Of a stretch of DNA of 64,000 nucleotides, positions 13,832 to 34,730 are shown in pieces. This DNA is from Candidatus Latescibacterota bacterium (GTDB lineage: Bacteria > Latescibacterota > UBA2968 > UBA8231). How positions within the stretch are numbered: position 1 is the stretch's first letter; the number at the start of each line of letters is the position of its first letter. The notes under the pieces are model-generated. The model saw nothing but the letters and a program-made list of their open reading frames with translations. It had not been told where the DNA came from and searched no databases. The position numbers and the translations under genes are program-made. The stretch lies in the NCBI GenBank assembly GCA_965223905.1, contig CBDCXV010000010.1, positions 1,312,001-1,376,000 on the forward strand, written 5' to 3'.

Positions 13832-16702
13832 TCACGCCGAGGTGGGCGGTTCCCCGCTGGCAAAGTTCATGGACAACAGTTCCCGCAGCGCCTGGTCCTC
13901 CGAAACATCTACATCCCACCCATAGGCCGCCGCCACAGATGCATCGAGAGCCGAGTGCGCGTCCTCGAGCCACTGAGGGCGGGCGTTGTAGAGGTTGGTC
14001 AGCGTGCGCTTCTTGAGCTCCTTCTCCGCTTCCTCGTCGCGGGGCACGGGGCGCCTGGGATAACCTGCAACAGGCTCCTCCACCCACTCCACCCATTCGG
14101 GCGGATTCAGCCACCGGTCTCTCAGCTCGACCAGCCGTCGGGCTGCGTCGGCAATGGCAACGGCGGGCGGATCATCCGCATAGTCCGTCGCGGGAACGTC
14201 GGGCGACAGCCCCTCCGGGAACGGGTAAGTCTCGAATGTTGTCGTCGGGGTGTAGCGCGGGCGGTCTTCCAGGCTTGTGCCCAGGCGCAGGGACCACGCC
14301 TCGTGAAAGCGGCTGTGCAGGATCCCGAAGGTGGTGTCGTCGTCGCGCGCGATGACGATCAGTTGATGATCAGGACAAACCCGCGCGTCAAGCCAGGCGA
14401 ACAGCCGGTGCTTTGCTACCGTCGGCGTAACGATGTAACGCTGCAGTCCGTCGAGTGCCTCCCACATACCCGGCCTCGGCTCGACGTGCCGCCACCAATT
14501 GGTGCGGTAGGCTTCTCGCCGGTTCCCTTGCCGCTTCGGATAGACGTGCTCCATTGCGTGTCGAAACGGGGCCTCGTAGAGCGCCGCCTCCTCCCGCACC
14601 ATGCTGGATCCGAAATCGACGATCCATTTGTCCGCCGGGCGCCGCGTGACGTCCATGCCGTTCATCCATGGTCCCAGGACATCGGAGTTGGGTCTCCCGT
14701 TCGGGTTGGCCGGCTCCCGCAGCCATTCCCGGGCCTGCTCTCCAGGGACGTCGAAGGGGCCGCCCTTCGTGTCCCCCATGAAGGCGACGCCCATGTTCCG
14801 GTGAAGCCGCCGAGCCTCCGTCAGATCGATGCCCGCCCCGCCGCGCTTCGCGGTCAGGTCGGCGTGAACCTCATCGACAAGTTGGCCGTCGAGTCTCCGT
14901 CCCGACACCGATCCGGCATCCTGCCCCGAGAAGCAGATCAGGGAAACGCGTACCGCGGCGCCGTCGATCACCCACGGCTCGTCGCTCCATGCCTCGAAGA
15001 TCGGACGGCCGTCGATCGCGGTCTGCAAGGCCCTCCGGTTCGCGCCCCCTCTAATTGAATTGGTCGAGACGAGGCCGGCTCGTTTCGCTTTGCCCGCTGC
15101 GAGGTGATCACCGGCCTTCACGAACCAGTAGCAAACGAGATCGACCTCGGCCGGCACGCGGCCTTCGTACGCAGCGAAAATTCTCCCAACGTACTCCTCC
15201 CCGAGGTGGGCGTTGAGGAGCTTGCCGCCGAGAAACGGCGGGTTGCCGATCACCACGTCGGCCTGCGGCCACTCCGGCTCGCTTCCCTCCGGCGACAGGA
15301 TCGCGTCGCGGCATTCGATGGTGTCGAGCGGCTTTAGGATCGGATCGCGCAACTCCCCGAATCCGTTGCGCCGCATCCACTGGATCTCGCCGATCCAGAC
15401 CGACACGCGGGCCAGTTCCGCGGCGTAGGGGTTGATCTCGATTCCCCTGACGTTGGCCGGGCCGACCCGGGGGAATTCGCGCTGGAGGCCCATGGCGTCG
15501 GCCTCCAGCTGCACCCGGTGCTCCAGGTCCTTGAGCGCGTGCAGCGCCAGATAGAGGAAGTTGCCGGAACCGCAGGCGGGATCGAGCACCGTGAAGCCGC
15601 GCAGGCGTTCGAGAAAGGCGCGCAGCAGCCGTTCAGCCTGTCCCCGCTGCCGTGTCCCTGCGGCCCTCGACCTGGTTCCGCCGGCGCGATCGAGAGCGGC
15701 TGCGATCTCCGCCTTCACCCTCTCCCATTCCGCCAGCAGGGGACGGACGACCACGGGCTCGACGATGCGCATGATCTTGTCCCGGTCGGTGTAGTGCGCC
15801 CCGAGCTGCGAACGCTTGTCCGGGTCGAGACCGCGCTCGAACAGGGTGCCGAGGATGGAAGGGTCGATCTCGGCCCAGTCGAGCGACGCGGCTTCGAGCG
15901 CCGTCTCGATCTCCGCCTTCTCGAGGGACAGGGCGGCATCGTCGTCGAACAGCCCGCCGTTGAACCACGCCACTGCCTCGAATCCGACGCGGCCCCCGTT
16001 GGACATCGCCGCGAACAGATCGCGGGCCATGCCGGCGAACTCCTGCGGTTGCCGGCGCGCCTGTTGCAGCATGCGCGTGAACATGTCCCCCGGCAGCAGG
16101 CCCACGTCCTCGGCGAACATGCAGAAGACGAGGCGATTGATGAAGTGCGCCACCGCCTGCGGGTCGTGGCCGCGCTCCCTCAGCGACTGCGCCAGCGCCG
16201 CGAAAGCGGTGGCCGCGCGCTCGGTGAGTGTCTGGCGCGTCTCTCCCGGACGCAGGCGCTCGGGATCGGAGAGCGCCCACTTGAGCTTGTCGCGGACCGC
16301 GGCGTCGGCGAGGTCGTCGATGGCGAACTCGAGGGTTTCGCTGACGCTGTTGGTCCAGTTGGTGCGGATGCGGAACCGCCGCATGTCGGAGACGATCAGA
16401 AGCGGCGGGTTCTCCAGGGCCAGGGCGTACTGCCTGAGCTGATCGAAGGCGGCGTCGAGGTTGGCTTGGCCGCCCTTGTACTCCCAGGCGAAGCAGTGCC
16501 GCTTCCACACGTCGGCCCAACCGCCGACGCCGGTCTCCTTGCGCGCTCCCTTCTCGAAGCAGTAGGTCTCGCCGGTCGGGTCGGCCTCGGCCGGTGTCGG
16601 TTCGCCCAGGAGCCGGCACAAGTCGATGAAGTGCTCCTGCGATGCCGAGCGTTCCTTCAGCTCCGACGCCCGCCACTTGGAGATGAATTCACCCGGGGTC
16701 AT
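13832..16702 (-). CDS. MmeI-like (type IIG/IIL) restriction enzyme-N6-adenine DNA methyltransferase fusion
   Basis: ADVW..WEYK nuclease-like motif, GAHYT, LDPACGSGNF, GNPPF, C-terminal TRD-like region. Confidence 0.9.
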   Translation of the reverse strand: MTPGEFISKWRASELKERSASQEHFIDLCRLLGEPTPAEADPTGETYCFEKGARKETGVGGWADVWKRHCFAWEYKGGQANLDAAFDQLRQYALALENPPLLIVSDMRRFRIRTNWTNSVSETLEFAIDDLADAAVRDKLKWALSDPERLRPGETRQTLTERAATAFAALAQSLRERGHDPQAVAHFINRLVFCMFAEDVGLLPGDMFTRMLQQARRQPQEFAGMARDLFAAMSNGGRVGFEAVAWFNGGLFDDDAALSLEKAEIETALEAASLDWAEIDPSILGTLFERGLDPDKRSQLGAHYTDRDKIMRIVEPVVVRPLLAEWERVKAEIAAALDRAGGTRSRAAGTRQRGQAERLLRAFLERLRGFTVLDPACGSGNFLYLALHALKDLEHRVQLEADAMGLQREFPRVGPANVRGIEINPYAAELARVSVWIGEIQWMRRNGFGELRDPILKPLDTIECRDAILSPEGSEPEWPQADVVIGNPPFLGGKLLNAHLGEEYVGRIFAAYEGRVPAEVDLVCYWFVKAGDHLAAGKAKRAGLVSTNSIRGGANRRALQTAIDGRPIFEAWSDEPWVIDGAAVRVSLICFSGQDAGSVSGRRLDGQLVDEVHADLTAKRGGAGIDLTEARRLHRNMGVAFMGDTKGGPFDVPGEQAREWLREPANPNGRPNSDVLGPWMNGMDVTRRPADKWIVDFGSSMVREEAALYEAPFRHAMEHVYPKRQGNRREAYRTNWWRHVEPRPGMWEALDGLQRYIVTPTVAKHRLFAWLDARVCPDHQLIVIARDDDTTFGILHSRFHEAWSLRLGTSLEDRPRYTPTTTFETYPFPEGLSPDVPATDYADDPPAVAIADAARRLVELRDRWLNPPEWVEWVEEPVAGYPRRPVPRDEEAEKELKKRTLTNLYNARPQWLEDAHSALDASVAAAYGWDVDVSEDQALRELLSMNFASGEPPTSA

Positions 16703-20452: not shown

Positions 20453-21372
20453 ATGAGGGCGACGTTGCTTCCGATGTTGGTGCTGGCATTCTACCTGATT
20501 GCCGCGGGCAGCTCCGTGCAGGCGCATTGGGGGGATCGGGTGTACCCCATATACGAACTGACGGAGAGCATGCTGGCAGATATCGATGTGACGGATGGCT
20601 TGATCGATGAATGGCAGGAGATTGGGCCGCCTTCAGCGACGGGTCTGGACTTTTCAGTCTTCTCCTTGTGGGAGGAGCCGGAATACGATCCATCCGATCT
20701 GGATTTACGGCTGTGGTTGGGTTGGTCGGCGTCTCAGAGCCGGATCTACGTGGCTCTGGCATGCGTGGACAACGTGGGGGTCAATCGGACCAACTACGAC
20801 CCCGCAGACGAACACTTGCCACTCGATGGATTCGGCTTCTACGTCGATGCCGATCACAGCGGCGGCGATTTTTTTCCGACGGCCGCCCCTGACTAAGTGA
20901 AGAGTACAAGCTGCAGGACGACGCCCAAGTACAGAGTTACGGCATCTCGCCAGATGTACCACCCGGCGAGGATAATATTCTGGGCATGTCGGCTTGGGCG
21001 GACTGGCCGGAGGAGCCGCCCTTTGGCCAAGGATTCGGAATCACACACGGGGAAAACCCGTCTATTTGGGTTGTCGAGTTTTACCTGACGCCGTTTGACC
21101 TCTTTGTGTATTCGGGGGCGGAAGAGAGTGCCGTCTCGGCCCTGTCCGCCGGCAAGGTCATTGGTTTCAGATGTCTGGTTAACGATGCCGACGGCGGCGT
21201 TTTATTCACGGAGAATTTCAAGAGATACCTTCTGCCCGCGATGGGTCTGGACGCACACCTAGAGAACGAAGTCAACGCGGATTCGTTTGCTGATGGGGTT
21301 CTGATCGGAGCAGAAGGTACGGTGGTCGAAGATCTCACCTGGGGCCGGATCAAGGCGTCGTTGGACAGATGA
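20453..21372 (+). pseudogene. Secreted protein with C-terminal TWGxIK motif, split by a frameshift near 20893
   Basis: Signal peptide; DGLIDEW; coding continues in a shifted frame to VEDLTWGRIKASLDR. Confidence 0.7.
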
Positions 21373-21526
21373 TTGCGGCAGTGCCTGTCAGGGGACTTGA
21401 CCGCCGTAAGCAATACCACCGTGTGGGAGTATCTGATTACGACCGTTCAGCCAAATACGTACCATCGTTTCGGATAAGTAACCCTCGGGCGGTTGTTATC
21501 CGAACAATTGGTTCGGGTACAATCAG

Positions 21527-21865
21527 TTAGGCGAAGGCATAAGAAAAAATGGATGGATTTGGTGGAGTATAGATCATGAGAGGGTGTTGGAGAGTTCGGG
21601 CTGGCGCTTTGCAGTGGAGGAGCATTTACGGAGATGGTCGCCTCGTCGCACGTGATTTCCCAACCCCGTCCGGCGCGCTAATACCGCTTGGGCGTTGCGT
21701 TTTACCTGGTCAAGAAATGATGAAATCAATGGGCAGTTGGGGAGATCGGGACCTGCGGATTGGGAGACCGACGAAAGATGGAGGGCTGAGGAGGGGCGCC
21801 GGACGGCCTCTCCACCACCCAAGCCCGAGAGTTTCTCCCATCGTGGTCGATCCGAGCAGGCCCTC
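21527..21865. other. ORF-less cassette body, copy A (candidate structured ncRNA)
   Basis: Bounded by GTTAGGCGA/TCGCCTAAC; homologous to 22918-23255 with 1-bp indels; internal inverted repeats. Confidence 0.75.
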
Positions 21866-21949
21866 GCCTAACACCTGTTCCCCCGGCTTCGGGCCCTGCG
21901 GGCCCTCCGCCAAACCGCTGTGCGGTTCGGGGGCACTGAGACGTTAGCC
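21866..21949 (+). repeat. attC-like site 1
   Basis: GCCTAAC...CGGGGGCACTGAGAC-GTTAGCC. Confidence 0.9.
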
Positions 21950-21953
21950 GCAA

Positions 21954-22721
21954 GTGGCATTACAACTGACCCATTCCGTGACCAACATGCTGAGCGAGAT
22001 CTACCGGACGAGTTTCGAGTGGGCCAAGCTGGGTGGCCATATCATCGAACACCGTTTTGGAGTCACCGTTTACAACTTGGACCACCCTGAGTACAACGAG
22101 AATAACTGCCTTTGGTATTTCGATCCAGGATTGGCGGATGAGTTTACTTTCCAGGTGGTTGTGGCGGAATTCGAAAGCCTGGGTGTGAGCTGCTCTCAAT
22201 GGGTTCCTTCCCCTTCCGCCAATCTGGATTTATGTGACAATTACTTCCGTGTTCATGAGATGGCTGATTCACCAGGAGAAGGCTTATTGCTCGATCTTGA
22301 TAGGGAATACCACGCTGACGCGAGAATCTGCGCGAAACGCAGCAACAAGCAATCCCTTGCGCAGGTCTATTCCTTGAGTGGCCAGAGATCAACTAGCACT
22401 GTCACGAGGAACAAAGCCTTATCTCTTTTGGGGATAGCGAACTACGAATCGTATGTTTGCTACTGGGATGGGGAACTGGCGGGCAGAGCTGGACTGCTGA
22501 GGGTTCCGGGAAAAGTCGCTCGATTGAAGAGCATTTTCGTCGGCGCCACATTTCGCCGTCAGGGAGTTGCTAGCAGCCTGATAAGGGTGATCGCCACCAA
22601 AGCGAGGGAACTGGGGTACCGCTATCTAGCGTCCGAAGTAGACCCTTCCAACGAGGCGTCGTCGGAATGTCATCGAAAGGTAGGGTTCAAAACCGCAGGG
22701 CTTGTTCACGCGTACAAATGA
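21954..22721 (+). CDS. GNAT family N-acetyltransferase (cassette)
   Basis: IFVGATFRRQGVAS, NEAS..RKVGF; start may be ATG 21987. Confidence 0.8.
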   Translation: MALQLTHSVTNMLSEIYRTSFEWAKLGGHIIEHRFGVTVYNLDHPEYNENNCLWYFDPGLADEFTFQVVVAEFESLGVSCSQWVPSPSANLDLCDNYFRVHEMADSPGEGLLLDLDREYHADARICAKRSNKQSLAQVYSLSGQRSTSTVTRNKALSLLGIANYESYVCYWDGELAGRAGLLRVPGKVARLKSIFVGATFRRQGVASSLIRVIATKARELGYRYLASEVDPSNEASSECHRKVGFKTAGLVHAYK

Positions 22722-22839
22722 CTCGGAGATGGACATCACGCCTATTCCTCGGAGTGAAAGATCAAAACCAGTTGTGTACGTTGTGCCGGCTTTTTAAGGC
22801 CAACCGCGGTTTCTTCGCGTCGAAGGCCAAGCCACCAGC

Positions 22840-22923
22840 GGCTAACACGCCGGGCTGCGGCTCCGGCCATCCGGCCTTCGCCCAACCCGCTTCGCGGGTT
22901 CGCAGCCCACGAAAGCGTTAAGC
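22840..22923 (+). repeat. attC-like site 2
   Basis: GGCTAAC..GGGCTGCG/CGCAGCCC..GTTAAGC. Confidence 0.9.
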
Positions 22924-23255
22924 GAAGGCCAAGGAAAATTTGATTGATTTGGTGGAGTATAGGTCATGATAGGCTGTTGCGGAGTTCGGGGTGGTCCCTC
23001 GCGGTGAGGAAGCATTTGCAGAGATGGGCGGCTCGTCGCACGTGATTCCCCACCCCGTCCGGCGCGCTAATACCGCTTGGGCGTTGCGTTTTACCTGGTC
23101 AGGAAAAGACGAGATCAATGGGCAGTTGGAGAGGTCGGGACCTGCGGATTGGGAGACCGACGAAAGATGGAGGGCTGAGCAAGGGCGCCGGACGGCCTCT
23201 CCACCGCCCAAGCCCGAGAGTTTTCTCCCATCGTGGTCGGGCAGAGCAGGCCCTC
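22918..23255. other. ORF-less cassette body, copy B (candidate structured ncRNA)
   Basis: Bounded by GTTAAGCGA/TCGCTTAAC; diverged copy of 21527-21865. Confidence 0.75.
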
Positions 23256-23340
23256 GCTTAACACCTGTGTCCCCGGCTCCGGGCCCTGCGGGCCCCTCGC
23301 GCAACCGCTTCGCGGTTCGGGGGCACGGAAGACGATATAT
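23256..23340 (+). repeat. attC-like site 3 (ends in non-canonical GATATAT)
   Basis: GCTTAAC...CGGGGGCACGGAAGAC-GATATAT. Confidence 0.88.
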
Positions 23341-23432
23341 GACATGGGTTGTCACAGTACCAGTGAAATTCGACAGAGGCAAAGCTGGCACGGTTGAAAT
23401 CATGAGCCTGCAGGCGCTGGAGAAAAACTGAC

Positions 23433-23924
23433 GTGGATCGCGTAGCCGTATTCGCAGATGTACAGAATGTTTACTACACAGTTAAGCAGCAACATAATTG
23501 CCATTTCGACTATGGTTCTTTCCTCAGGGAGGCGACAGCCGGCCGGAAACTGGTGAAGGCAGTAGCCTATGCTATTGACAAAGGCGACAGAAAGCAGGCC
23601 CAATTTCAGAAAATTCTGAAACGGCTCGGTTTTGAGGTAAAGCTCGCGCCTTATATTCAGAGAGCTGACGGCTCAGCCAAAGGGGACTGGGACGTGGGCA
23701 TTACGGTCGATATGTTGGAGTACGCAGATCGCGTGGATGTCGCTGTCCTGGCTTCAGGTGACGGAGACTACGCGCCTGCAATTGACAAGCTAATCAAGGA
23801 ATCCAAGGTATCCGTCGAGGTGTACGGTGTCCCAGGACTAACTGCTAGTCGTCTAATCGAATCGGCGACGCGATTTGTGCCAATTCAAGGAGATCTGTTG
23901 CTGCCTATTCCCACCACGTGGTGA
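23433..23924 (+). CDS. NYN domain (LabA/DUF88) protein (cassette)
   Basis: VFADVQNVY, KGDWDVGITVD, SGDGDY. Confidence 0.9.
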   Translation: MDRVAVFADVQNVYYTVKQQHNCHFDYGSFLREATAGRKLVKAVAYAIDKGDRKQAQFQKILKRLGFEVKLAPYIQRADGSAKGDWDVGITVDMLEYADRVDVAVLASGDGDYAPAIDKLIKESKVSVEVYGVPGLTASRLIESATRFVPIQGDLLLPIPTTW

Positions 23925-24021
23925 CGTGGAAGCGACACTGTTGCAAAGCCATGCACGCTAACGCACTCTCGCGTCGCTACCTCTCTGCGTTGATCAGCCT
24001 TGGAGCAATCATACCCACGTC

Positions 24022-24111
24022 ATATATCACAGCAATTCACGCTGCCGCCATTCGGCGCTTGGCCTTCGGCAAGTCGCTTTCGCGACTTCGTGAATTGTGA
24101 GAACGTTACAT
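24022..24111 (+). repeat. attC-like site 4 (starts with non-canonical ATATATC)
   Basis: ATATATC..CAATTCACG/CGTGAATTG..GTTACAT. Confidence 0.88.
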
Positions 24112-24154
24112 GAAATGCTTGATAGATATCTGCGATAGACGCTGACAACACGAG

Positions 24155-24784
24155 ATGGACGTAAATCTTCTCTCATCGCGACTTGCCTCGGAATTGGGCT
24201 CGAATAGACTCCTCGTAGCCGCACTCGATGGTCCCGGCGGAGCTGGAAAGTCAACCATCGCCAGGAAACTAAGCGAGAGGTGTAATCTCATCTCAATCGT
24301 TCACGGGGATGACTTCTATGCTCCAATGGAGGAGCATGCGAGAATGGCTCTAACGCCTGAAAATGGTTACATGAGGTATTTTGATTGGGCGAGAATACGG
24401 AGTGAGCTTCTTGAACCCTTATCGCGTGGAGATCGAGCTCGCTACAAGCGCTATGATTGGGGGAGCAACCAGCTGGCGGAGTGGGTTGATCAACCGGCTG
24501 AGGGCATCATCCTGATCGATGGGGTCTATTCATTTCGGCCCGAATTGAGGAAATTCTATGGCTACTCCATTTTCGTCGACACTCCGAAAGCCGAATGTCT
24601 GGATAGGCTGGTCAAGCGAGGTGAAAACACAGACGAATGGATTCGGAGATGGAGGGCAGCGGAAGATTACTATCTGACGCATATAGACACTGCCAGTGCT
24701 GTTTCCGTCGTTGTTTCAGGCATAGGAAGCGCTGGAGCATCGGATCCGATATCGCGACCGAGGATATCCGCGCACTTCATGTAA
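24155..24784 (+). CDS. Uridine kinase-like P-loop protein (cassette)
   Basis: DGPGGAGKST, HGDDFY, YDW; stop codon lies inside ATGTAAC. Confidence 0.85.
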   Translation: MDVNLLSSRLASELGSNRLLVAALDGPGGAGKSTIARKLSERCNLISIVHGDDFYAPMEEHARMALTPENGYMRYFDWARIRSELLEPLSRGDRARYKRYDWGSNQLAEWVDQPAEGIILIDGVYSFRPELRKFYGYSIFVDTPKAECLDRLVKRGENTDEWIRRWRAAEDYYLTHIDTASAVSVVVSGIGSAGASDPISRPRISAHFM

Positions 24785-24859
24785 CACCGTGCCCCCGGCT
24801 TCGGGGCAAAGCCCCTTAGCCCAACCGCTACGCGGTTCGGGAGCACTGAAACGTTAGCC
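24779..24859 (+). repeat. attC-like site 5
   Basis: ATGTAAC-ACCGTGCCCCCG...CGGGAGCACTGAAAC-GTTAGCC. Confidence 0.9.
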
Positions 24860-24929
24860 GAAATGTCGGTTTGAGGCTTACATCATTGCCTCGAGTTGTG
24901 ATTCAACAGAATCAGAAGGAGATGGTCCC

Positions 24930-26642
24930 TTGATAGGTGATTTTGATGTCGATCCGATCACAGGGCGCCTCGTTCTGTGGTGCCGGAGCATTTCCGGAGA
25001 AACCTGGTTGAAAATTACGGAGCCCTCAGGTGAGATCATTGGGGAAGTACCGCCTGAATTTCTTCCCCATCATCCGCGTTGGGCTCCAGATGGACTTCGT
25101 CTTACGTTTTCTGGGAACGATGGCCGCATCGGTGTCTATGAGCTATCTCAGAATGACATAAGGGTCGTCTACGAAGATCAATCCATGCAAGCGGGGTTCA
25201 GCCAGTGGTCGCCAAACGGCACAAGCCTCGTGTTTTCTGCCTACGAAAAGCACAGTACCGAGCAATTGAATAAACGGCCACCTGACATTTTTCACCTCAC
25301 ATTGGATAGCGGCAAACTTGATAGATTGACCGCATCGAAGGACAGTGTGGACAGGTTTCCAAATTGGTCCCCATCCGGTGACCTGATTGCATTTCATCGG
25401 CAAAACCTGGAGGAGCTTAACAAGCCTAAGAAAGTGCATCTATTTGATCTTCAACGTCAAAGAATATCCTTGCTCCTGCCCGAGGCAAATGGTAACCGAT
25501 TTGGTCGATTCCCCTGGTCACGTGACGAAAGCTGGTTTGCACTTCACGTGTCCGACGAGAAGGAAGGGACCGTTCACGTTGTAGATCTTACGGGCCGAGA
25601 TTCCGGGTGGATCTATGAAGATGGGCCTGTGAAAGAAGGTGCATTTTCAAACTCGACGAACAGGCTTCTCTGCGTCAGACCCGATGAGCTTGTTTGGGTG
25701 CAGTTTCCCGTAGGCCGCGTAGATTCACGCATCAGATTGGATTCCGGGGTTAGCGTGGCGAAGAACCTGACTTGGTATCAAATCGCCTTCAGAGCCGACA
25801 GCGATACCGTCTTTTTTCTTGGAACAGACCATAAGGTTTACCGCTGGAAAGAATCTGAAGGATGCACTGTCGTAGCTGAGCATACCGAACCCGTACCGAG
25901 TTTTAGGCTTGAGGAATTTACGGTTCCTGCTTCGGATGGTTTAGCTCTTCCAGCACAGCGGTTGGTTCCGCCGTCTCCACGAGAGCTCGCTGTTCTGTAT
26001 GTGCATGGTGGGCCTGGAGGCAGCCTCGATAGAAATGACTCATGGGCTTTAGGGCTGCTTCGCCAGGGATTCGAGATTGTGCGCGTGGCTTATAGGGGCT
26101 CTACCGGCTTCGGCGAGGACCTCGATCGAGCGAACACCGGGGTCGCCGGGGTCGCAGACGTTCAGGATGTATTAGACTGTGGAATCTACTGGCAGCAACA
26201 CTTTAGTACAGGCAGGAGAATCGCTCTGTTCGGTAATAGCTATGGCGGGTTTCTAAGTCTCCTTGCCCTGGCAGATGCATCTTCACCATTCGTAGGTGGG
26301 ATCTCCACGTGCACTTGCACAAGTCTTCGAATCATGCGCCTCCATCATGATAGATTCCTTCCAAGTAGTCCAACGGAACGCGAGAAAGCATTAGTTGAGC
26401 GATCCGTATTGACACATGCTACCCATATAAAGAGGCCAATCCTGCTGGTTCATGGCGCGCTTGATACCGTCGCGACCACAAGCGAAATGCAGCACGTCGA
26501 GAAACTCATTAATGACTCTGGCGGCAACTGTACGCTAATCGTCTTTGGCGACGACACACACAGTTTGGCAAAGCACCGCGAAGAAATATACGAAAAGGCT
26601 ATCCAATTCTATGAAAAGTGTTCAACGCCTGGACAGGATTGA
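24930..26642 (+). CDS. S9 prolyl oligopeptidase-family peptidase with TolB-like beta-propeller (cassette)
   Basis: WSPxG repeats, HGGPG, GNSYGG, HGALD, DDTH. Confidence 0.88.
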   Translation: MIGDFDVDPITGRLVLWCRSISGETWLKITEPSGEIIGEVPPEFLPHHPRWAPDGLRLTFSGNDGRIGVYELSQNDIRVVYEDQSMQAGFSQWSPNGTSLVFSAYEKHSTEQLNKRPPDIFHLTLDSGKLDRLTASKDSVDRFPNWSPSGDLIAFHRQNLEELNKPKKVHLFDLQRQRISLLLPEANGNRFGRFPWSRDESWFALHVSDEKEGTVHVVDLTGRDSGWIYEDGPVKEGAFSNSTNRLLCVRPDELVWVQFPVGRVDSRIRLDSGVSVAKNLTWYQIAFRADSDTVFFLGTDHKVYRWKESEGCTVVAEHTEPVPSFRLEEFTVPASDGLALPAQRLVPPSPRELAVLYVHGGPGGSLDRNDSWALGLLRQGFEIVRVAYRGSTGFGEDLDRANTGVAGVADVQDVLDCGIYWQQHFSTGRRIALFGNSYGGFLSLLALADASSPFVGGISTCTCTSLRIMRLHHDRFLPSSPTEREKALVERSVLTHATHIKRPILLVHGALDTVATTSEMQHVEKLINDSGGNCTLIVFGDDTHSLAKHREEIYEKAIQFYEKCSTPGQD

Positions 26643-26662
26643 GCTTTACAGGTCCACACAGC

Positions 26663-26746
26663 AGCTAACACATGGGTCACGGCTTCGGGCCATACGGCCC
26701 TTCGCCCAACTCACTTCGTGAGTTCGTGACCCATCAAACGTTATAC
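26663..26746 (+). repeat. attC-like site 6
   Basis: AGCTAAC..ATGGGTCACG/CGTGACCCAT..GTTATAC. Confidence 0.9.
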
Positions 26747-26757
26747 GCCCCAACAAG

Positions 26758-27507
26758 ATGCTGGAGGAACAGGTGGCCGGAAGTAGAGATGATCTCAGAG
26801 AGGCGGTAGAGCGCGGCGACCTCTCCACTGTCAAACGGCTGTTACATACGGAGCCAGGTCTTCTCCACGAGTCCATCCCTCCATGCGATGATCGCAAACA
26901 ACGAGGCCAGATTCTCAGATACCGACCGATGACGCTCGCCGCCGTGGAGTGTCAGACAGAAATTCTCTCTTTTCTGATTGCCGAGGGGGGCGATGTGATG
27001 GAGTACAGCAATTTTCCACTCTGTCGAGCATCACTCTACGACCGTTGTATTCCAACTCTGGAGTTACTGGTTCAGCATGGCGCAGAGGTAAATCGAGTCG
27101 GTAATGACTACGGTCCGCCGTTGATATTCGCGTGCGAAGGAATGGCCCTCGATTGCATCGCATGGTTGCTGGACAACGGCGCGGCAATCACAGGGACTGG
27201 TCCGAGTTTATCTGAAACCGTGTCTTGGAATGCCCTCAAACATGCGGGCTTCTTCAACCGGAAGTGTTCGGGCATGCTTGATTTGCTCCTCGAGCATGGC
27301 GCTGACGTCAACAGTTCAGTTGTTGATGAGGTTGGCGGAGATCCTGAGACTACGGTACTGCACAATGTCGTGGAAAGCGGGGATATTGCTGGCGTGGAGC
27401 TCCTGCTTACCCATGGGGCTGACCAAGATGCCAAAAATGGCAAGGGACAGCGCCCGGTCGAGGTGGCTCGGGAACGCAAAGTCAGAGAACTACTAGAGAA
27501 CATCTGA
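26758..27507 (+). CDS. Ankyrin-repeat protein (cassette)
   Basis: LLVQHGAEVN, LLLEHGADVN, LLLTHGAD..KNGKGQRP. Confidence 0.88.
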   Translation: MLEEQVAGSRDDLREAVERGDLSTVKRLLHTEPGLLHESIPPCDDRKQRGQILRYRPMTLAAVECQTEILSFLIAEGGDVMEYSNFPLCRASLYDRCIPTLELLVQHGAEVNRVGNDYGPPLIFACEGMALDCIAWLLDNGAAITGTGPSLSETVSWNALKHAGFFNRKCSGMLDLLLEHGADVNSSVVDEVGGDPETTVLHNVVESGDIAGVELLLTHGADQDAKNGKGQRPVEVARERKVRELLENI

Positions 27508-27516
27508 GGTTGGAGC

Positions 27517-27607
27517 GCATAACCGCACGTTTGGCGATGCGGCGCTTAGCGCGCCTCGGCCTTCGGCAACCCGCTAAGCGGGTTCGCAAACCGGCAACCC
27601 GTTAGCG
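27517..27607 (+). repeat. attC-like site 7
   Basis: GCATAAC...GGCCTTCGGCAACCCGCTAAGCGGGTTCGCAAAC...GTTAGCG. Confidence 0.85.
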
Positions 27608-27662
27608 GCAATGGAGTTCAGGCCTGGCATGTTCCTCTGGCCAGTCATCAGGAGGCACCAAG

Positions 27663-28148
27663 ATGGAGAATATAATCCTTTCGTTGCAGGGTTTCTCTGT
27701 GTTCCTGCAAATCGCTTTCCTAGTCACTTTGATAGCAATCGCACAGACTCTTCGACGCTCAATTGGAATTTGGAGCCCCTCTTGGATTGTTATCTTTTTC
27801 TCTCTGAAATATTTGGGGGAGTATGCTAATCCCTTCCTGATGAAACTGCTGACTGAGGAATGGACGGCGTTAACAGTCCCAAACGCGCCGGTCACCTTAG
27901 GGCAGTTGTTTGTATTTCTCAGTTCCGCTCACCTGATATTCATACTGCTGGGTGCTTTCGGCCTCCTCGCCCTGGTCTTGTCGGACCTATCCCATTCTTT
28001 GTGGGGCGCAGACGACATACACCCCTCACGTTGGTTTCAGTGTTTCGAGTTGGTCGGCCGTCATCGACTCGGATTCGGGTTGGCTACGGTGCTGTTGGCT
28101 GTAGCGCACCCTGCCCTTCTGGTGGGCCTTCTGTTGAGTAACAATTGA
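27663..28148 (+). CDS. Hypothetical membrane protein (cassette)
   Basis: 161 aa with about 4 hydrophobic segments; AGGAGG RBS; fills the cassette. Confidence 0.75.
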   Translation: MENIILSLQGFSVFLQIAFLVTLIAIAQTLRRSIGIWSPSWIVIFFSLKYLGEYANPFLMKLLTEEWTALTVPNAPVTLGQLFVFLSSAHLIFILLGAFGLLALVLSDLSHSLWGADDIHPSRWFQCFELVGRHRLGFGLATVLLAVAHPALLVGLLLSNN

Positions 28149-28165
28149 GACTGGCAGACCACAGC

Positions 28166-28247
28166 CGATAACACCGTGCCCCTGGCTCCGGCGCCTGCGC
28201 GCCTACGCGCAACCGCTTCGCGGTTCGGGGGCACTGAGACGTTAGAA
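28166..28247 (+). repeat. attC-like site 8
   Basis: CGATAAC-ACCGTGCCCC...GGGGCACTGAGAC-GTTAGAA. Confidence 0.9.
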
Positions 28248-28344
28248 GAAATGGAAAAAAGAATCAGCGCTTAAGTAAGAAATCGCCTGAATAAAGGTAG
28301 AGGTACGATATATTCGCCGTTCAGTTTTTAGGCAGGAGTTTTTA

Positions 28345-29304
28345 ATGAATAGCAAGGCTAGTATCGTAGATGAGTTTTTGCTTAAAGGGGTCATCGGTAT
28401 GAGCAGGGCGATCGGTAAGAATCGTATGTCTGGCCATCCAGGCGCTGCGATGCTTGCTGCATATTTCTTTTGTGTTGAGAATGCCCTGTCAGACGAGGTT
28501 CAGGCCGAGGTCTATAATCTCGTGAGACGCATGGTCAACTCAGAATCAATGTGGTTCAGCAGAGATGGAGAATCTTCAACCAATGAGATCTTCTTTTCTA
28601 CCAAACCAGATCAGAGACCAAACGCGGATCTAATCCCGTCTGTTGCCACTGCACTAGAACCCAGTATCACCGAATGTCGGGATTCAGGACACAATACTAT
28701 CTTCGCGTCGTTAGTACTGAAGGCACTGCACACCGCGCCACATTATGCATTTCCTGCGATTATTGAAGGTATCATAAACTTGCTCAAAGCTTTTGAGGGA
28801 CGTGGGCCGGGATGGGCACGTGTACCAGGTAATGAGAAATTAGCAGATCCCCGTGAGTTTTCGGTACCTCAAGAACTGGATGATCCTTCCTATGAGAGCC
28901 ATATCGACATGATCGAAGCAGTATCCCGCTATGTCGTACCAGATAACTTCGCCAAAAAAGGCGTTGGTGGGCCGATCCATGTCATAGATCATGCCGTAGC
29001 TCTGTTAGATCTGCACGCGTTGGGGTATTCTTCGTTGGCGAATAGAGGACTGGCAGCTCATCAGCAACATATGAAGTTGTGGCTGGGCCTCCCTAAATTT
29101 CCGCAAGCTGAAAACAGCTACTCCGTGAAATCGAAGCACGATCCTCGCGCATTGGACTACTGGCGTGAGAAGATAACCATAAAAGATGGTGGCGGTGATG
29201 AACACCGACTGAAGATTCTCTATGGCGCGCACCGTTTTGCCGAGTGCATTACAGACGTAAACAAACGTCGAAGTTTTCTTGAAAGTGCGGCGCACCTGTT
29301 TTGA
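28345..29304 (+). CDS. Hypothetical protein with several His motifs (cassette)
   Basis: 319 aa, AGGAG RBS; SGHPGAA, SGHNTIF, IHVIDHA. Confidence 0.75.
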   Translation: MNSKASIVDEFLLKGVIGMSRAIGKNRMSGHPGAAMLAAYFFCVENALSDEVQAEVYNLVRRMVNSESMWFSRDGESSTNEIFFSTKPDQRPNADLIPSVATALEPSITECRDSGHNTIFASLVLKALHTAPHYAFPAIIEGIINLLKAFEGRGPGWARVPGNEKLADPREFSVPQELDDPSYESHIDMIEAVSRYVVPDNFAKKGVGGPIHVIDHAVALLDLHALGYSSLANRGLAAHQQHMKLWLGLPKFPQAENSYSVKSKHDPRALDYWREKITIKDGGGDEHRLKILYGAHRFAECITDVNKRRSFLESAAHLF

Positions 29305-29370
29305 AAATGCGCCTAACGGCGAGCGTTGTTGGCTCTCTTTTTCTTTTACAGAAACTAAATATGCCACTTC

Positions 29371-29457
29371 TTCTAACACATCCATTTACGCTACGGCGCT
29401 ACGCGCCTTGGCCTTCGGCAACCCGCTGCGCGGGGTCGCAAACCGGGGACGTTAGAG
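29371..29457 (+). repeat. attC-like site 9
   Basis: TTCTAAC...GGCGCTACGCGCCTTGGCCTTCGGCAACCC...GTTAGAG. Confidence 0.88.
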
Positions 29458-29991
29458 GCCATGCGGCCAGACAAGAGGACAATCGCAAATGAGGCTTGGG
29501 AGAATCTGACGATGCTGGAAGAGGGTGAATCCGTCCAAGGTTGTGTCAATCCCGTTGTGCGGATTGGAGATACCGTGCGCAGGCCTATCCATAGCTGGAC
29601 TCCAGCCGTCCATTCCTTGCTGCACTACTTGGAGGCGGTTGGCTTTTCAGGATCTCCCCGTGTCCTCGGATTCGACGAACTGGGAAGAGAGGTGCTTTCG
29701 TTCATCCCAGGGGAAGTTGCTCTGCGACCATGGCCGGAGGTGATGGGTGAGGAGAAGGGCCTCGCTGAGGTCGCCCGTTTTCTCTCCAGATATCACAATG
29801 CCGTGAAAGACTTTGAGCCACCAGAGAATGCTGAATGGTATGTTCCCATGTGACGTGGCGACCAGGAATGACCATCCGACACGGGGATCTTGGACCCTGG
29901 AATACTATCTGGGAAGGGCGAACCTTAAACTGGAGTTGACCCGATTTCGTGGACACTTCATTTCTTGGAGAAAGAAAGGAGATGTCCAACC

Positions 29992-30306
29992 ATGCCGAAA
30001 TCACATAGCCCGTATCCGCCGGAATTCCGGCAACAGATGGTTGAGCTCGTACGGGCGGGTCGTAGCCCGGAGGCGTTGGCCAAGGAATTCGAGCCGTCCG
30101 GGCAGACGATCCGCAACTGGGTGATCCAGGCCGAACGCGATGAGGGGGTGCGTCGCGACGGGCCGAGCCGCCCCGAACAGGAGGAGCTGCGGCGCCTTCG
30201 CCGTGAGAACAAGCAACTGCGTATCGAACGGGGGATCCTGGCAAAAGCCACGGCCTGGTTCGCTCGCGAGGCCGACTCGGGGTCCGGCCCGTCTACGAGT
30301 TCATGA
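29992..30306 (+). CDS. IS3 transposase OrfA
   Basis: YPPEFRQQMVELV HTH; EELRRLRRENKQL zipper. Confidence 0.9.
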   Translation: MPKSHSPYPPEFRQQMVELVRAGRSPEALAKEFEPSGQTIRNWVIQAERDEGVRRDGPSRPEQEELRRLRRENKQLRIERGILAKATAWFAREADSGSGPSTSS

Positions 30307-31187
30307 GAGCGCACCAGGCCGACTTTCCGGTGTTCACGATGTGCCGCGTGCTGAAGGTGTCCCCCAGCGGCTACTACGCCTGGTTGAAGCGCCCGCCGTC
30401 GGGTCGCACTCGGGCCGATGCGGTGCTCAAGGCGCGCGTCGAGCAGATCCACCAACGCTCCCGAGGCACTTACGGGGCGCCGAGGATCCGGGCCGAACTG
30501 GCCGAGGAGGGGCGCGGCGTCAGTCGCAAGCGCATCGCCCGATTGATGCTCGAGCTCGGGGTGCGTGGGGTATGCGGGCGGCGCCGGATCTCCACGACCC
30601 GCCGCAGCCGGCAGGGCCGGGTCGCCTCCGACCTGGTCAACCGGGTGTTTTCGGCCTCGGGCCCGAATCTGCTGTGGGTTGCCGACATCACCTACCTGCC
30701 CACCGCTTCGGGTTTTTTGTATCTGAGTGTGGTGGTCGACGCCTGGAGCCGCCGGGTGGTGGGCTGGGCTATGGCGAGCCATCTGCGTACGCAGCTGGTG
30801 CTCGACGCCCTTGACATGGCCCTGTACCGGCGTCGCCCCCACTCGGTAATCCACCACTCCGATCACGGCAGTCAGTATACGGCCCTGGCCTTCGGGCAAC
30901 GCTGTCGCCAGGCCGGGGTGCGCCCGTCGATGGGATCGGTCGGTGACTGCTACGACAATGCCCTGTGCGAAAGCTTTTTCGCCACGCTGGAAAGGGAGTT
31001 GTTGGATCGTCATCGGTTTGCTACCCATGCCGAGGCCCGGCTAGCTGTTTTCGAGTACCTGGAAGGCGGGTACAATCGCCAGCGGCGGCATTCCGCCCTG
31101 GGACAACGGTCTCCCGTCAACTACGAGAGATATCACCAATCAGAGAGTGTAGATCCAAACGCAAAACTGTCCGTGAAATCGGGGTAA
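30303..31187 (+). CDS. IS3 transposase OrfB (DDE)
   Basis: WVADITY, HHSDHGSQY, DNALCESFF; ATGA overlap with orfA. Confidence 0.93.
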   Translation: MRAHQADFPVFTMCRVLKVSPSGYYAWLKRPPSGRTRADAVLKARVEQIHQRSRGTYGAPRIRAELAEEGRGVSRKRIARLMLELGVRGVCGRRRISTTRRSRQGRVASDLVNRVFSASGPNLLWVADITYLPTASGFLYLSVVVDAWSRRVVGWAMASHLRTQLVLDALDMALYRRRPHSVIHHSDHGSQYTALAFGQRCRQAGVRPSMGSVGDCYDNALCESFFATLERELLDRHRFATHAEARLAVFEYLEGGYNRQRRHSALGQRSPVNYERYHQSESVDPNAKLSVKSG

Positions 31188-31562
31188 CCTCAAACGGGGT
31201 AATCGACTGGGACTTTGCTGAACCAGGTGATGCTCTCTGCGATGTTAGTCAGTTTGCTTGGTATGCGGTGCCTCTCCGAGGAGAAGACCACTGGAGAAAG
31301 GCTGGATTTTCTGATAAGCCTGATCTCAGGGCCAGACTAACCGTACTTTCTGACACCTATGGTACGGACTCCAAAGCAATCTTGGACACCCTATGCAATC
31401 TGCAATTGGAAGAGTATCGCAGGACCGAGACTCTGGGCAGGCAGGGACTCCTCCCCTGGTCCATCTTCTACGAACGTGGGGATCTTGCGGAACTCTCAAA
31501 AGAAAACACGTGGCTGAGAGAGAATTACGATTCGCTTGCCGTATAGAAGCGGTCCGCACGTC

Positions 31563-31658
31563 TTCTAACACGTCCACTTGCGCTGCGGCGCATATGCGCC
31601 TTGGCCTTCGGCAACCCCTCGACAAGCTCGGGGTTCGCAAGTGGCGAAAACGTTAGGT
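31563..31658 (+). repeat. attC-like site 10
   Basis: TTCTAAC..CCACTTGCG/CGCAAGTGG..GTTAGGT. Confidence 0.9.
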
Positions 31659-31689
31659 GCCATCTGAAAGATTCCACTGTGGAGGACTC

Positions 31690-32667
31690 GTGAAAGGATT
31701 CGAATTGTCAGAGAGGTTCTTCCGGGAGATTGGGCTTCCCACCATTGAGCAACGATTGCCCGGGTGTGTCCCGAGACTGGCAGTGGGCGTTAGTGGAGGC
31801 TCGCAAGCGCACAAGAACGACGATGCAGTGTCTCGCGATCACGGTTGGGGGCCGAGATTCACGGTGTGGTTTGCCAAAGACGATTTCGATGATCACAGTG
31901 AGCGTCTACAGGAAGTGCTGGACACGCTGCCCAATGAGTATGAGGGATTTCGATGGGAGGATCCACGGGCCAGGACCTGTGGTGTAATCGAAATCGGTAG
32001 CTATATAGAATCTGCAGTTGGATTCTCAGAACCACCCGAGTCGCCCATGGACTGGTTGCGAATACCCGAGTCGTACCTATTCGAGTTGACTCCGAGCAGG
32101 CTCTATCACGATGGGCCTGGCATTGTCAGTGCTCGCTTCCGAGCGTTCTCCACATACCCTGATGATGTCTGGAAGCAGCGAATGGGGGCTTGCCTTTCCT
32201 GGCTCTGGGAGTGGGGACGAAAGCATCTCTTCAGGGCGGAAACTCGAGGAGACCACGTGAGTGCGTCTTGCTATTGGGCAAGATTTGCTGAGTACGCAAT
32301 GAAGGTTGGTTTTCTGATGAGTCATCGTCATGCACCCTACCACAAATGGTTGTGGAGAGAGTTCAGGAAGTTGGGTGCCATTGCCGACCAAGTTTCTCCT
32401 TTGCTTGAGGAGGGGTTCGAGAAGGTGGAAGGCAGACGAGAACTCGTTGACCGCATAGAGATGATCTATATGGAGATGCTTCAGCAGCTTGGCTTTTCAC
32501 CAGCGGTCCAAGCAGCCACTAGAAGATTGGCCTATCCAGACAATGAACTGCTTCGATATGCCCAGAGTGTTCGTAACGCCATTGAGACTCCAGAAATCAA
32601 GAAACTGCACTTGAGAGAAGAGCTTGTCTATCCAGCAACTAAGGCCGCGTGGACATGGCTACGATAG
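31690..32667 (+). CDS. DUF4037 domain-containing nucleotidyltransferase-like protein (cassette)
   Basis: GFELSERFF, DAVSRDHGWGP, YPDDV, APYHKW; GTG after GGAGG. Confidence 0.8.
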   Translation: MKGFELSERFFREIGLPTIEQRLPGCVPRLAVGVSGGSQAHKNDDAVSRDHGWGPRFTVWFAKDDFDDHSERLQEVLDTLPNEYEGFRWEDPRARTCGVIEIGSYIESAVGFSEPPESPMDWLRIPESYLFELTPSRLYHDGPGIVSARFRAFSTYPDDVWKQRMGACLSWLWEWGRKHLFRAETRGDHVSASCYWARFAEYAMKVGFLMSHRHAPYHKWLWREFRKLGAIADQVSPLLEEGFEKVEGRRELVDRIEMIYMEMLQQLGFSPAVQAATRRLAYPDNELLRYAQSVRNAIETPEIKKLHLREELVYPATKAAWTWLR

Positions 32668-32686
32668 GGACGATCTGGTAGACAGC

Positions 32687-32768
32687 ACCTAACACCGTGC
32701 CCCCGGCTTCGGGCCGTTCGGCCCTTCGCCCAACCGCTGCGCGGTTCGGGGGCACTGAGACGTTAAGA
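32687..32768 (+). repeat. attC-like site 11
   Basis: ACCTAAC-ACC-GTGCCCCCG/CGGGGGCAC-TGAGAC-GTTAAGA. Confidence 0.92.
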
Positions 32769-32802
32769 GAAATGTTTTAAGAGACGAGTAGGAGTTTCAG
32801 GT

Positions 32803-33513
32803 TTGAGACCAGTTCTTCTGTTTGACCTTGGCGACACCCTTGTGCAGTACTATCGCAGGGAAGAGTTTCCTCCTTTGCTGCGGGCAGGAATTCACGCAGC
32901 CAAAGAGGCACTGGAGCGTTCGGGACACGATTTGCCTTCGGATTCTGAGATCGAGCGCGGTGTCGCGACTGAGAACTACGAAGCCAAAAACAGTCGCGTT
33001 CGCCCACTCCACAAGAGGCTTGGTCGTATCTTTGCGGTCGCACCTTGCGTTTCGGAGGAAGAGTGGCTGCCGATCTGTCGTGCCTTCCTCACGCCAATCA
33101 TTTCTATTGCCAAGATCTATGAAGACACTCTTCCGGCTCTAGATGCGCATCTGGCGGATGGCTGCCGCGTAGGAATCCTGTCGAACTGTCCTTGGGGTTC
33201 ACCGAGCGAGCCCTGGTTTGAAGAACTGCGGCGACATGGCCTTTCGACGCGATGCGAGGTGGCTATCTTTTGTTCGGATGTAGGGTGGCGGAAGCCCGCC
33301 CAACCTATGTTTCGCCGGGCATTGGATCATTTTGGATGCAAACCAGAGGAATGCCTGTTTGTCGGAGATAATGCAAGGTGGGACATTATGGGTGCGAGAC
33401 GAGCGAATATGATTTCCGTGCTCATCGACCGAATCGGTCACGTGGATGTGAGTTCGGGACTTGTTATCCGATCTTTGCTTGATCTAAAGCCCGTCCTCGA
33501 ACGATTGGATTGA
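32803..33513 (+). CDS. HAD family hydrolase (cassette)
   Basis: FDLGDTL, LSN, RKP, FVGD..WDIMGA. Confidence 0.88.
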   Translation: MRPVLLFDLGDTLVQYYRREEFPPLLRAGIHAAKEALERSGHDLPSDSEIERGVATENYEAKNSRVRPLHKRLGRIFAVAPCVSEEEWLPICRAFLTPIISIAKIYEDTLPALDAHLADGCRVGILSNCPWGSPSEPWFEELRRHGLSTRCEVAIFCSDVGWRKPAQPMFRRALDHFGCKPEECLFVGDNARWDIMGARRANMISVLIDRIGHVDVSSGLVIRSLLDLKPVLERLD

Positions 33514-33545
33514 ACGCACTTCAACGATTGGATTGAACGCACTTC
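33500..33545 (+). repeat. Perfect 23-bp tandem duplication
   Basis: AACGATTGGATTGAACGCACTTC x2. Confidence 0.95.
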
Positions 33546-33628
33546 TCTTAACACGACCGGGCCCGGCTACGGGCCATACGGCCCTTCGCCCGACCGCTTC
33601 GCGGTTCGAGCACGGCGAAAGGTTATAT
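33546..33628 (+). repeat. attC-like site 12
   Basis: TCTTAAC...GGGCCATACGGCCC..ACCGCTTCGCGGT...GTTATAT. Confidence 0.88.
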
Positions 33629-33653
33629 GACATGAGTAACAGGTGAGCGTGAG

Positions 33654-34730
33654 ATGAGATCGTCGATTCTTCCAATCTTACTCGTGTTTGCTCATATCAC
33701 GGCCAGCGAAGGAGGTGAGCCAATGTTTAGCGTAACCGTTGATCCGCGGATAGAGCTGCTGTCCGTTGTGGGAGTATTGGCCGACCACCAGGGCATGACG
33801 AACTACGACATCCAGTATAGGCAAGAAATCCTAAATCGCTTTTCCAATCACAGGAATCACAACGCCGTCACGTTTCTACGCCGTGTCATGGATAGGGCAC
33901 TTGCATCCGATGCATACGCGACCGTTATGATCCATTTGTCGCAGCCTCCCGCATTAAAGTTTGAGAGTCCGATCAACGACGACGCGATGGAGGACTATGT
34001 CACCCGAGCGTTTGGTGGCGACATTAATATCATTGCATTTGTCGAGACGCTCCGTGACTTCGTCAAGGATTCAGATTTCATCGAGTTTTACAGCTCCCAA
34101 TCACGTTTCTATCAATCTTTGAGATCAGATGCTTTGGACAAGCTTGGTAGCACAGATTATATGAATACGCTTGAACAATACGTTGGCGATAAGCAGGAAA
34201 ACTATCACATCATTCTCGGGCCCCTGCTCCATCACGGCGGTTTTGGACCCCGGATCGTAGGCGACAAGGGCGTGACTGATCTCTTCAGTATCATCGGCCC
34301 GGTGGGCGAGGATGAGGGGGTTCCCGACTTTGGAGACCGAGCTAGACTTCAAGACGTTCTTTGGCACGAGTTTGCACATTCATTTGTCGATCCCATAACC
34401 GCCGATCACCTGATGAGCGTTAATGAATATTCGTCCCTGTATATACCTATTGCAGAACAAATGGCGAGCGCTGGCGGCTACATGAACTGGCAAACCTGCG
34501 TCAACGAACACATAATCAGAGCCATTACATGTCGATTGTTCCACTCTGAGATGGGGACGGAGGCTGGAGAGCAGGCCCTTGCGGCCGAGAGGGAGCGAGG
34601 CTTTCGTTACATCGACGCCATCCATTCAAGGTTGTTGGAGTATGAGGGTAATAGGTCGACGTATAGCACGCTCAGGAGTTTCTATCCTGAGATCGTCGCT
34701 GCGTTTGCACAGATTGCAAGCGAGAATTGA
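33654..34730 (+). CDS. DUF4932-like protein with HExxH motif (cassette)
   Basis: VDPRIELLSVV, HEFAHSFV, NEHIIRA. Confidence 0.8.
   Translation: MRSSILPILLVFAHITASEGGEPMFSVTVDPRIELLSVVGVLADHQGMTNYDIQYRQEILNRFSNHRNHNAVTFLRRVMDRALASDAYATVMIHLSQPPALKFESPINDDAMEDYVTRAFGGDINIIAFVETLRDFVKDSDFIEFYSSQSRFYQSLRSDALDKLGSTDYMNTLEQYVGDKQENYHIILGPLLHHGGFGPRIVGDKGVTDLFSIIGPVGEDEGVPDFGDRARLQDVLWHEFAHSFVDPITADHLMSVNEYSSLYIPIAEQMASAGGYMNWQTCVNEHIIRAITCRLFHSEMGTEAGEQALAAERERGFRYIDAIHSRLLEYEGNRSTYSTLRSFYPEIVAAFAQIASEN

Follow-up and report, generated by a model that had tools for sequence, protein, structure and literature searches.

Gene-less integron cassettes are common. Proposals for what they carry include protein-binding sites, small RNAs and promoters, and gene-less promoter cassettes reportedly occur in integrons from oral metagenomes. 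To our knowledge, promoter activity is the only function shown so far for such cassettes, and only in Vibrio and Treponema. In the portion of the source cited here, most of 29 tested Vibrio cassettes displayed sense-strand promoter activity that was not predictable by software (PMC11014356). Weinberg et al. 2017 described a structured motif that recurs in cassette-like arrays and, in the portion cited here, regarded RNA and single-stranded DNA (ssDNA) motifs as bioinformatically indistinguishable (PMC5737381). Here we analysed two related cassettes devoid of any conserved open reading frame (ORF), copy 1 and copy 2, located in a 64,000-nt window (contig C10:1312001-1376000) of the 7.9-Mb genome of a Candidatus Latescibacterota bacterium (G000). 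Both are true integron cassettes, and their bodies share a long-range inverted repeat, helix A, that is retained in a divergent subfamily through a compensated change. Our best reading, which we hold tentatively, is that of a mobile non-coding cassette acting as a folded RNA or ssDNA. No such family appeared in the titles and abstract openings of papers retrieved on ORF-less or non-coding integron cassettes and on Latescibacter integrons.

Two gene-less cassettes in an attC array

Sites resembling attC extend over ~21.5-40.5 kb of the window, on the + strand throughout. A profile trained on five sites of the array returned 13 matches in the window, from 21864 to 40472 and all on the + strand, including those of copy 1 (21864-21953, E 3.7e-23) and copy 2 (23253-23345, E 2.8e-22). 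Each cassette measures 417 bp and consists of a 338-339-bp body followed by its own attC; the cassettes start after G21526 and G22917 and end at G21943 and G23334, the crossover positions of GTTRRRY cores (Table 1). Of the attC-bounded cassettes that the profile detects, copy 1 comes first, and the sequence 5′ of it (21440-21533) gave no match to the profile. Within the latter, a short palindrome, CCGAACAATTGGTTCGG, directly precedes GTTAGGC.

Searches of the whole of G000 by BLAST and nhmmer revealed only these two copies. Among 41 relatives, the element was found only in G002, a genome of the same genus, as two adjacent cassettes: G002_a (83% identity) and G002_b (69% identity), the latter, hereafter gb, representing a divergent subfamily. 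The attC of copy 2 is that of G002_a up to the crossover G and then continues into the sequence that follows gb in G002, a junction that therefore fits gain or loss of gb at the crossover G/TT. At least five different neighbours lie downstream of elements: a GNAT cassette, an NYN cassette, another element, a second kind of GNAT cassette and an unrelated sequence in a contig from run X22, whose match ends exactly at 23334. Bounds at attC crossovers, presence or absence at the exact crossover and this variety of neighbours bear out the mobility that had been proposed for the element.

The bodies of copies 1 and 2 are 88% identical (BLAST); three single-base indels set them apart, one near 21540, one in a T-run at 21656-58/23046-47 and one in a T-run at 21832-34/23221-24, which confirms that they are homologous without sharing a reading frame. 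DNA contigs from run X1 (records 2 and 7) reproduce TTT in copy 1 and TTTT in copy 2 without gaps; therefore, at least this indel is no assembly error. The third indel does fall, as had been noted, in the loop of a minus-strand GGGAG-AAA(A)-CUCUC hairpin. The original prediction further held that the cassette cores covary. The pairs exist (GTTAGGC 21526-32 with GCCTAAC 21866-72, and GTTAAGC 22917-23 with GCTTAAC 23256-62) and are extended by pairing between the 12 nt at either end of the body, but their significance was not upheld: the cores are the R′/R′′ boxes of each cassette's own attC, and such covariation is expected in any cassette because its first six bases derive from its own R′ box. 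The same extended end complementarity was read in the sequence of the neighbouring GNAT cassette.

The four copies share no frame, codon periodicity or protein family, in agreement with their description as ORF-less. Their conserved blocks fall in different frames, and an invariant GGAG-8 nt-ATG opens ORFs of 123, 13, 17 and 122 codons, also in different frames; translational coupling from this signal was rejected, as the ORF counts only 13 and 17 codons in two copies. Between the indels, copies 1 and 2 differ at 10 positions, six of which fall in one phase (P = 0.077, or P = 0.23 after correction for three phases), and codon periodicity was absent from all other comparisons of copies. These six changes are all synonymous in one minus-strand frame, which a -2/+2 indel pair restores in G002_a. 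However, gb has stops in the candidate frames, and P0002, P0003 and P0006, ORFs from metagenomes described below, carry the -2 deletion without the +2 insertion. Candidate coding frames on the + and the minus strand were thus rejected, since the phase bias is not significant and the frames are lost in gb and other variants. Three ORFs overlapping the elements matched 0 Pfam families, and the 10 distinct sequences that protein searches with overlapping ORFs returned from a collection of 5.8 billion proteins included no clean homologous protein. We take the cassettes to be non-coding, although a decayed gene retains a small probability.

The 10 sequences returned by the three protein searches are metagenomic ORF calls that lie on both strands and switch frames; some read through attC into the next cassette, in one case with fusion to a downstream GNAT. 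Further copies are implied for both subfamilies, and several of these are tandem copies. Two elements lie within P0004, and a single 7701-nt contig carries P0005, P0007 and P0010. The gb-type copies are gb, P0008, P0009 and P0010. Variants carry 1-, 2- and 5-nt indels plus larger deletions.

Beyond these, the family appears very restricted. Queries with either subfamily gave full-length matches in 2/168 genomes of the phylum, G000 and G002, and a covariance model (R1) recovered the known four copies in 2 of 76 genomes of the family. A 19.9-bit match of that model in genome G012 was rejected because it sits inside a 570-aa ORF. An exact-pattern scan of 185,579 species genomes with the 5′ block reported G002 alone, two scans of viral contigs yielded 0 further copies, and BLAST against plasmid and phage collections gave no match.

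The 5′ variable segment (columns 58-135 of alignment A4; 21584-21660 and 22974-23049) is a mosaic. Copy 2 and G002_a differ there at 30/72 columns and are near-identical downstream. Gene conversion between paralogous cassettes is suggested by the resemblance of these segments to the other copy in the same genome. Hypermutation by a diversity-generating retroelement was rejected by eye, the differences not being limited to one base.

Helix A and the proposed pseudoknot

The original prediction placed two interleaved helices in both bodies, in the order A-B-A′-B′ with 9 nt between neighbours, and both were found where they had been described. Helix A (CCGTCCGGCGC with GCGCCGGACGG in copy 1) comprises 11 bp, a figure that rises to 13 bp with a 2-bp extension lying beyond a G.G mismatch. 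In all four copies no other perfect inverted repeat is as long, and the helix closes a more variable domain of 112-119 nt. Upon 1000 dinucleotide shuffles of copy 2, an 11-bp perfect stem arose in 9, a second stem of at least 9 bp in 15, and 11-bp plus 9-bp stems in 2. All 44 cells of helix A are paired across the four copies; 10 of its 11 pairs are invariant and the remaining one has changed on both sides, being C:G in three copies and U:A in gb. All four gb-type copies imply T:A at this pair, and c-type copies imply C:G wherever it is readable from translation. Only five differences separate copy 2 from gb inside the conserved blocks, and two of these form the compensated pair of helix A. 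Random placement of five substitutions (20000 trials) produced a compensated Watson-Crick pair in a stem of at least 6 bp in 2.9% of cases and of at least 5 bp in 5.4%.

Helix A is embedded in an unevenly conserved body. Identity between the subfamilies is ~64% overall, and when identity between gb and the other copies was taken in windows, its variance exceeded that of 5000/5000 column permutations. About 13 invariant blocks of 6-15 nt each stand out; the 5′ block contains an 8-bp palindrome, and the 3′ block includes the A′ arm (Table 1).

Helix B (GCTTGGGCG with CACCCAAGC in copy 1) behaves differently. Conservation of both helices, as originally claimed, holds for the three close copies, but the divergent gb keeps A and loses B, 4/9 pairs of which are unpaired. 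Over the four copies, 6/36 cells of helix B are unpaired and 0 are compensated, and in 5/9 pairs the sole departures are unpaired cells. In P0005 the implied change in B′ has no counterpart in its partner, and the B′ stretch is missing from P0001. With helix B failing in the divergent subfamily and none of its changes compensated, the interleaved pseudoknot is unsupported; judging from the sequences, it would be at most a feature of one subfamily, outside the conserved design. The claim that the elements are structured was therefore retained for helix A, on its length, its retention in all four copies and its one compensated pair, and abandoned for the pseudoknot.

An antisense orientation had been proposed from the single mismatch in helix B of copy 1, which is indeed C.A on the + strand and G.U on the minus strand. 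This argument is offset by changes that fit the + strand only, namely, in copy 1, U-A to U.G (A4 columns 154/270) and, in copy 2, A-U to G.U (columns 47/325); those that fit the minus strand only are helix B in copy 1 and a G.U to A-U change in the 3′ hairpin. Neither orientation is favoured, since wobble-type changes point both ways and the RNA-library contig (see below) is strandless.

A local 6-bp stem, present on the minus strand only, overlaps A′ (A4 columns 300-305/275-280, in the region 21806-21827). It reads UCGGGC/GUCCGG in c-type copies and UCAGGC/GUCUGG in gb, where it is kept by a second coordinated substitution (column 303). This stem might be an alternative pairing of A′, or a by-product of the low-complexity CUCUC/GGGAG sequence. 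With random placement, three or more such counts were reached in 0.2% of 20000 trials for stems of at least 6 bp and in 0.8% for stems of at least 5 bp, in a post hoc test on a low-complexity region in which helix A alone gives most of the signal.

A stretch of 22-24 bases in the A′ block (21788-21810) also occurs, without a mismatch, in glutamine synthetase genes. When JGI metagenomes were scanned with this block, 2 loci (L006 and L007) were retrieved, both of which were rejected as glutamine synthetase genes, an assignment confirmed by Pfam for L007. The identity is most likely a coincidence, as there is no similarity outside the stretch. BLAST matches of 23 nt in five genomes of genus g18 (L008-L010, L013 and L014) fall on that part of the query as well and are probably explained in the same way.

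Table 1. Positions of the features of copies 1 and 2 in the window.
Feature	Copy	Position	Strand	Remarks
Cassette body (c-type)	1	21527..21865	+	Starts at T after G21526 of GTTAGGC; no conserved ORF
attC	1	21866..21949	+	R′′ GCCTAAC 21866-72; R′ GTTAGCC 21943-49; crossover G21943/T21944
Cassette body (c-type)	2	22918..23255	+	Positional orthologue of G002_a
attC	2	23256..23340	+	R′′ GCTTAAC 23256-62; R′ GATATAT 23334-40; crossover G23334/A23335
5′ invariant block	1	21562..21579	+	GTGGAGTATAGATCATGA; GGAG, 8 nt, ATG; 8-bp palindrome ATCATGAT inside
5′ invariant block	2	22952..22969	+	
Helix A, 5′ arm	1	21666..21676		CCGTCCGGCGC
Helix A, 3′ arm (A′)	1	21796..21806		GCGCCGGACGG
Helix A, 5′ arm	2	23055..23065		
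Helix A, 3′ arm (A′)	2	23185..23195		
Proposed helix B, 5′ arm	1	21686..21694		GCTTGGGCG; pairing not conserved in family
Proposed helix B, 3′ arm (B′)	1	21816..21824		CACCCAAGC; one C.A mismatch on +
Proposed helix B, 5′ arm	2	23075..23083		
Proposed helix B, 3′ arm (B′)	2	23205..23213		Perfect 9 bp
3′ conserved block	1	21794..21825		A′ plus CCTCTCCACC.CCCAAGCC; invariant A4 columns 271-277, 279-293, 295-302
3′ conserved block	2	23183..23214		
GAGAG-TTT-CTCCC	1	21827..21839		Minus-strand GGGAG-AAA-CUCUC hairpin
GAGAG-TTTT-CTCCC	2	23216-23229		With TTTT

Possible readings: folded strand, promoter or selfish cassette

The reading that we prefer, with less than full conviction, is a mobile non-coding cassette whose product or form is a folded single strand. 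Such a cassette would work without a protein, most likely as an RNA produced together with the cassette array, or alternatively as the ssDNA through which cassettes recombine. In either form, helix A would hold the conserved flanking blocks together, and the fold may regulate neighbouring cassettes or help the cassette's own recombination.

Among 23 sequencing runs are two RNA libraries (X21 and X22) labelled 'sponge metagenome'. A 238-nt contig of X22 follows 23138-23334 with 3 differences and a depth of 2.5 before entering unrelated sequence, and a 178-nt contig of X21 covers 23332-23500, together giving a weak hint of transcription across attC. No contig of either library fell on copy 1, the GNAT cassette or the 5′ half of copy 2, which is no evidence of silence because only contigs, at low depth, were available.

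Several observations weigh against a folded strand. The DNA copies number only four and come from two congeneric genomes, so that there is effectively one covariation event, and the shuffle control for covariation was powerless (134/500 shuffles reached the observed score). Folding z-scores of the whole body are ordinary (+1.29, +0.25, -0.91 and -1.82 for both strands of copy 1 and gb), and no interior helix with covariation is common to both subfamilies. Rfam 15 contains no matching family, with 0 families at the gathering score over the whole window; two matches within 21300-23500 (E ~7), mir-770 on attC and a trypanosome snoRNA, were dismissed as chance. The first element of P0004, a c-type copy, implies an uncompensated change inside helix A and P0001 implies deletions, from which it follows that some copies are decaying. 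The compensated inverted repeat could also stem from template switching or be a symmetric protein-binding site in double-stranded DNA (dsDNA). Finally, the X22 contig is of low depth, could be DNA carry-over and, as a contig, says nothing about strand, transcript ends or level.

A more specific form of the folded strand is a lead that we consider improbable. It supposes a switch, made from the minus strand or from ssDNA during recombination, in which A′ would alternate between its 11-bp pairing in helix A and the local 6-bp partner 19 nt away; gb keeps both pairings of A′ via three coordinated substitutions, out of its five block differences. If true, the element would be a mobile riboregulator or, alternatively, a selfish cassette that draws its two attC sites together by folding, thereby promoting its own excision and tandem spread.

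The element could instead act as dsDNA, as a promoter or regulatory cassette whose blocks would be promoter or operator for downstream cassettes of an array that has no Pc promoter linked to an integrase, and whose A/A′ repeat would be an operator or an attenuator at the transcript level. We consider this unlikely. Its appeal lies in the sense-strand activity, unpredictable in silico, of most Vibrio superintegron gene-less cassettes tested in the portion of the source cited here (PMC11014356), in the usefulness of internal promoters to an array with no tyrosine recombinase gene in the window, in the place of copy 1 at the head of the detected cassettes and in the palindrome of the invariant 5′ block. 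Yet a consensus scan that is weak for this phylum found no sigma-70-type promoter and no intrinsic terminator pattern in any of the four elements, its sole promoter-like site lying in the next cassette. Moreover, a promoter needs ~40 bp whereas conservation spans ~300 bp, and a compensated inverted repeat with arms 130 bp apart would be left unexplained.

Equally doubtful is a selfish or decaying cassette without host function, maintained by recent duplication, shuffling and gene conversion, in which structure is incidental. The tiny size of the family, confined to one genus among the genomes searched (full-length in 2/168 phylum genomes, and in 2/76 family genomes by the covariance model), would suit it, as would the frequent tandem copies, the indel and deletion variants, the resemblance of the 5′ variable part to the copy in the same genome and the ordinary folding z-scores. 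What speaks against it is the presence of 6-15-nt invariant islands at ~64% identity, an unevenness equalled in 0/5000 permutations; islands this short are unlike the remains of long conversion tracts, and helix A is compensated, not merely retained.

A small protein gene on either strand, frameshifted in most copies, is very unlikely. The phase bias of 6/10 differences between copies 1 and 2, synonymous in one minus-strand frame, the frame-restoring indel pair of G002_a and the GGAG-8 nt-ATG invariant in 4/4 copies would be in its favour; the corrected P of 0.23, the absence of periodicity elsewhere, ATG-initiated ORFs in different frames, the stops in gb, the lone -2 deletion of three metagenomic variants and the lack of any Pfam match or clean homologue oppose it.

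Inversion by a recombinase of the 112-119-bp segment between the A/A′ repeats was rejected: switches with an invertible promoter occur widely in the Bacteroidota-related superphylum, and an 11-13-bp inverted repeat with both arms changed together surrounds a short segment here, but the interior of gb aligns with c-type copies only in the forward direction (scores of 76-79 against 36-39 for the reverse complement and a shuffled mean of ~38), and three joints in four runs were all skips, none strand-changing.

Genomic setting and comparison with known systems

The array is an attC cluster without integrase, since the window contains none of the genome's 19 matches to PF00589 (tyrosine recombinase; 0/19) and the sole integron-integrase-like gene of the genome lies on another contig (C1:1175160-1175970, minus strand). 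That gene is in two pieces, covering model positions 2-181 and 254-315 with 127 and 84 bits, respectively, for a family cut-off of 265; an attC-like match (C1:1177967-1178059, + strand) is located ~2 kb from it. Cassettes of the array encode a GNAT acetyltransferase, an NYN-domain protein, a kinase-like P-loop protein, an S9 peptidase and an ankyrin-repeat protein (26758-27507, + strand), among others. Upstream of the array lies an MmeI-type restriction-modification fusion gene (13832-16702, minus strand). Neither of two ORFs near the first element (20986-21372 and 21369-21530) matches Pfam.

Directly downstream of copy 2, a 30-codon ORF (23339-23431, + strand; ATG at 23339, stop TGA at 23429-31) is separated by 1 base from the GTG at which the NYN-domain gene (23433-23924) starts. 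By eye, 160 nt including this ORF are identical in G002, where its ATG overlaps (ATGA) the stop of a long ORF running through gb. The 30-codon ORF matched no Pfam family at E up to 0.1 and may encode a small protein that partners the NYN nuclease-like cassette.

A family with a compensated long-range helix would be a concrete candidate for a second role of gene-less cassettes, that of a structured RNA or a cassette-borne ssDNA fold, a claim that remains modest because it involves four DNA copies and one covariation event. The family also displays gain or loss of a cassette, exact to the crossover, in an uncultured lineage with an integrase-like gene that appears split and lies on another contig, and a 'sponge metagenome' run holds a near-identical half-element.

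Among known systems, H-type pseudoknots and the double-pseudoknot ribozymes resembling that of hepatitis delta virus have the A-B-A′-B′ order seen in c-type copies; unlike in them, helix B is neither conserved nor covarying here and the second loop measures 101 nt, and no Rfam ribozyme family matched 21300-23500 even at E up to 10. Helix A also invites comparison with attC sites, which are imperfect inverted repeats that work as folded single strands. It nevertheless lies in the body, ~140 nt from either end, is devoid of R- or L-box sequence and comes in addition to a normal attC.

The DUF1874 motif is likewise a conserved structured motif that recurs in integrase-less cassette-like arrays and, in the portion of the source cited here, one whose role as RNA or ssDNA is indistinguishable from sequence, as is the case for our element (PMC5737381). 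According to the same portion, DUF1874 recurs in consecutive intergenic regions and may be an unusual attC (PMC5737381), whereas the motif described here fills a whole cassette that carries a standard attC. As far as the cited portion of their description goes, the gene-less promoter cassettes of Vibrionaceae share with copies 1 and 2 their attC bounds, an attC of their own, the absence of a credible gene and ordinary cassettes as neighbours (PMC11014356). In contrast to these, the elements reported here belong to a G+C-rich, uncultured lineage of Latescibacterota, form a multi-copy family of two subfamilies that often occur in tandem, and combine the absence of a predicted promoter with a compensated long-range helix.

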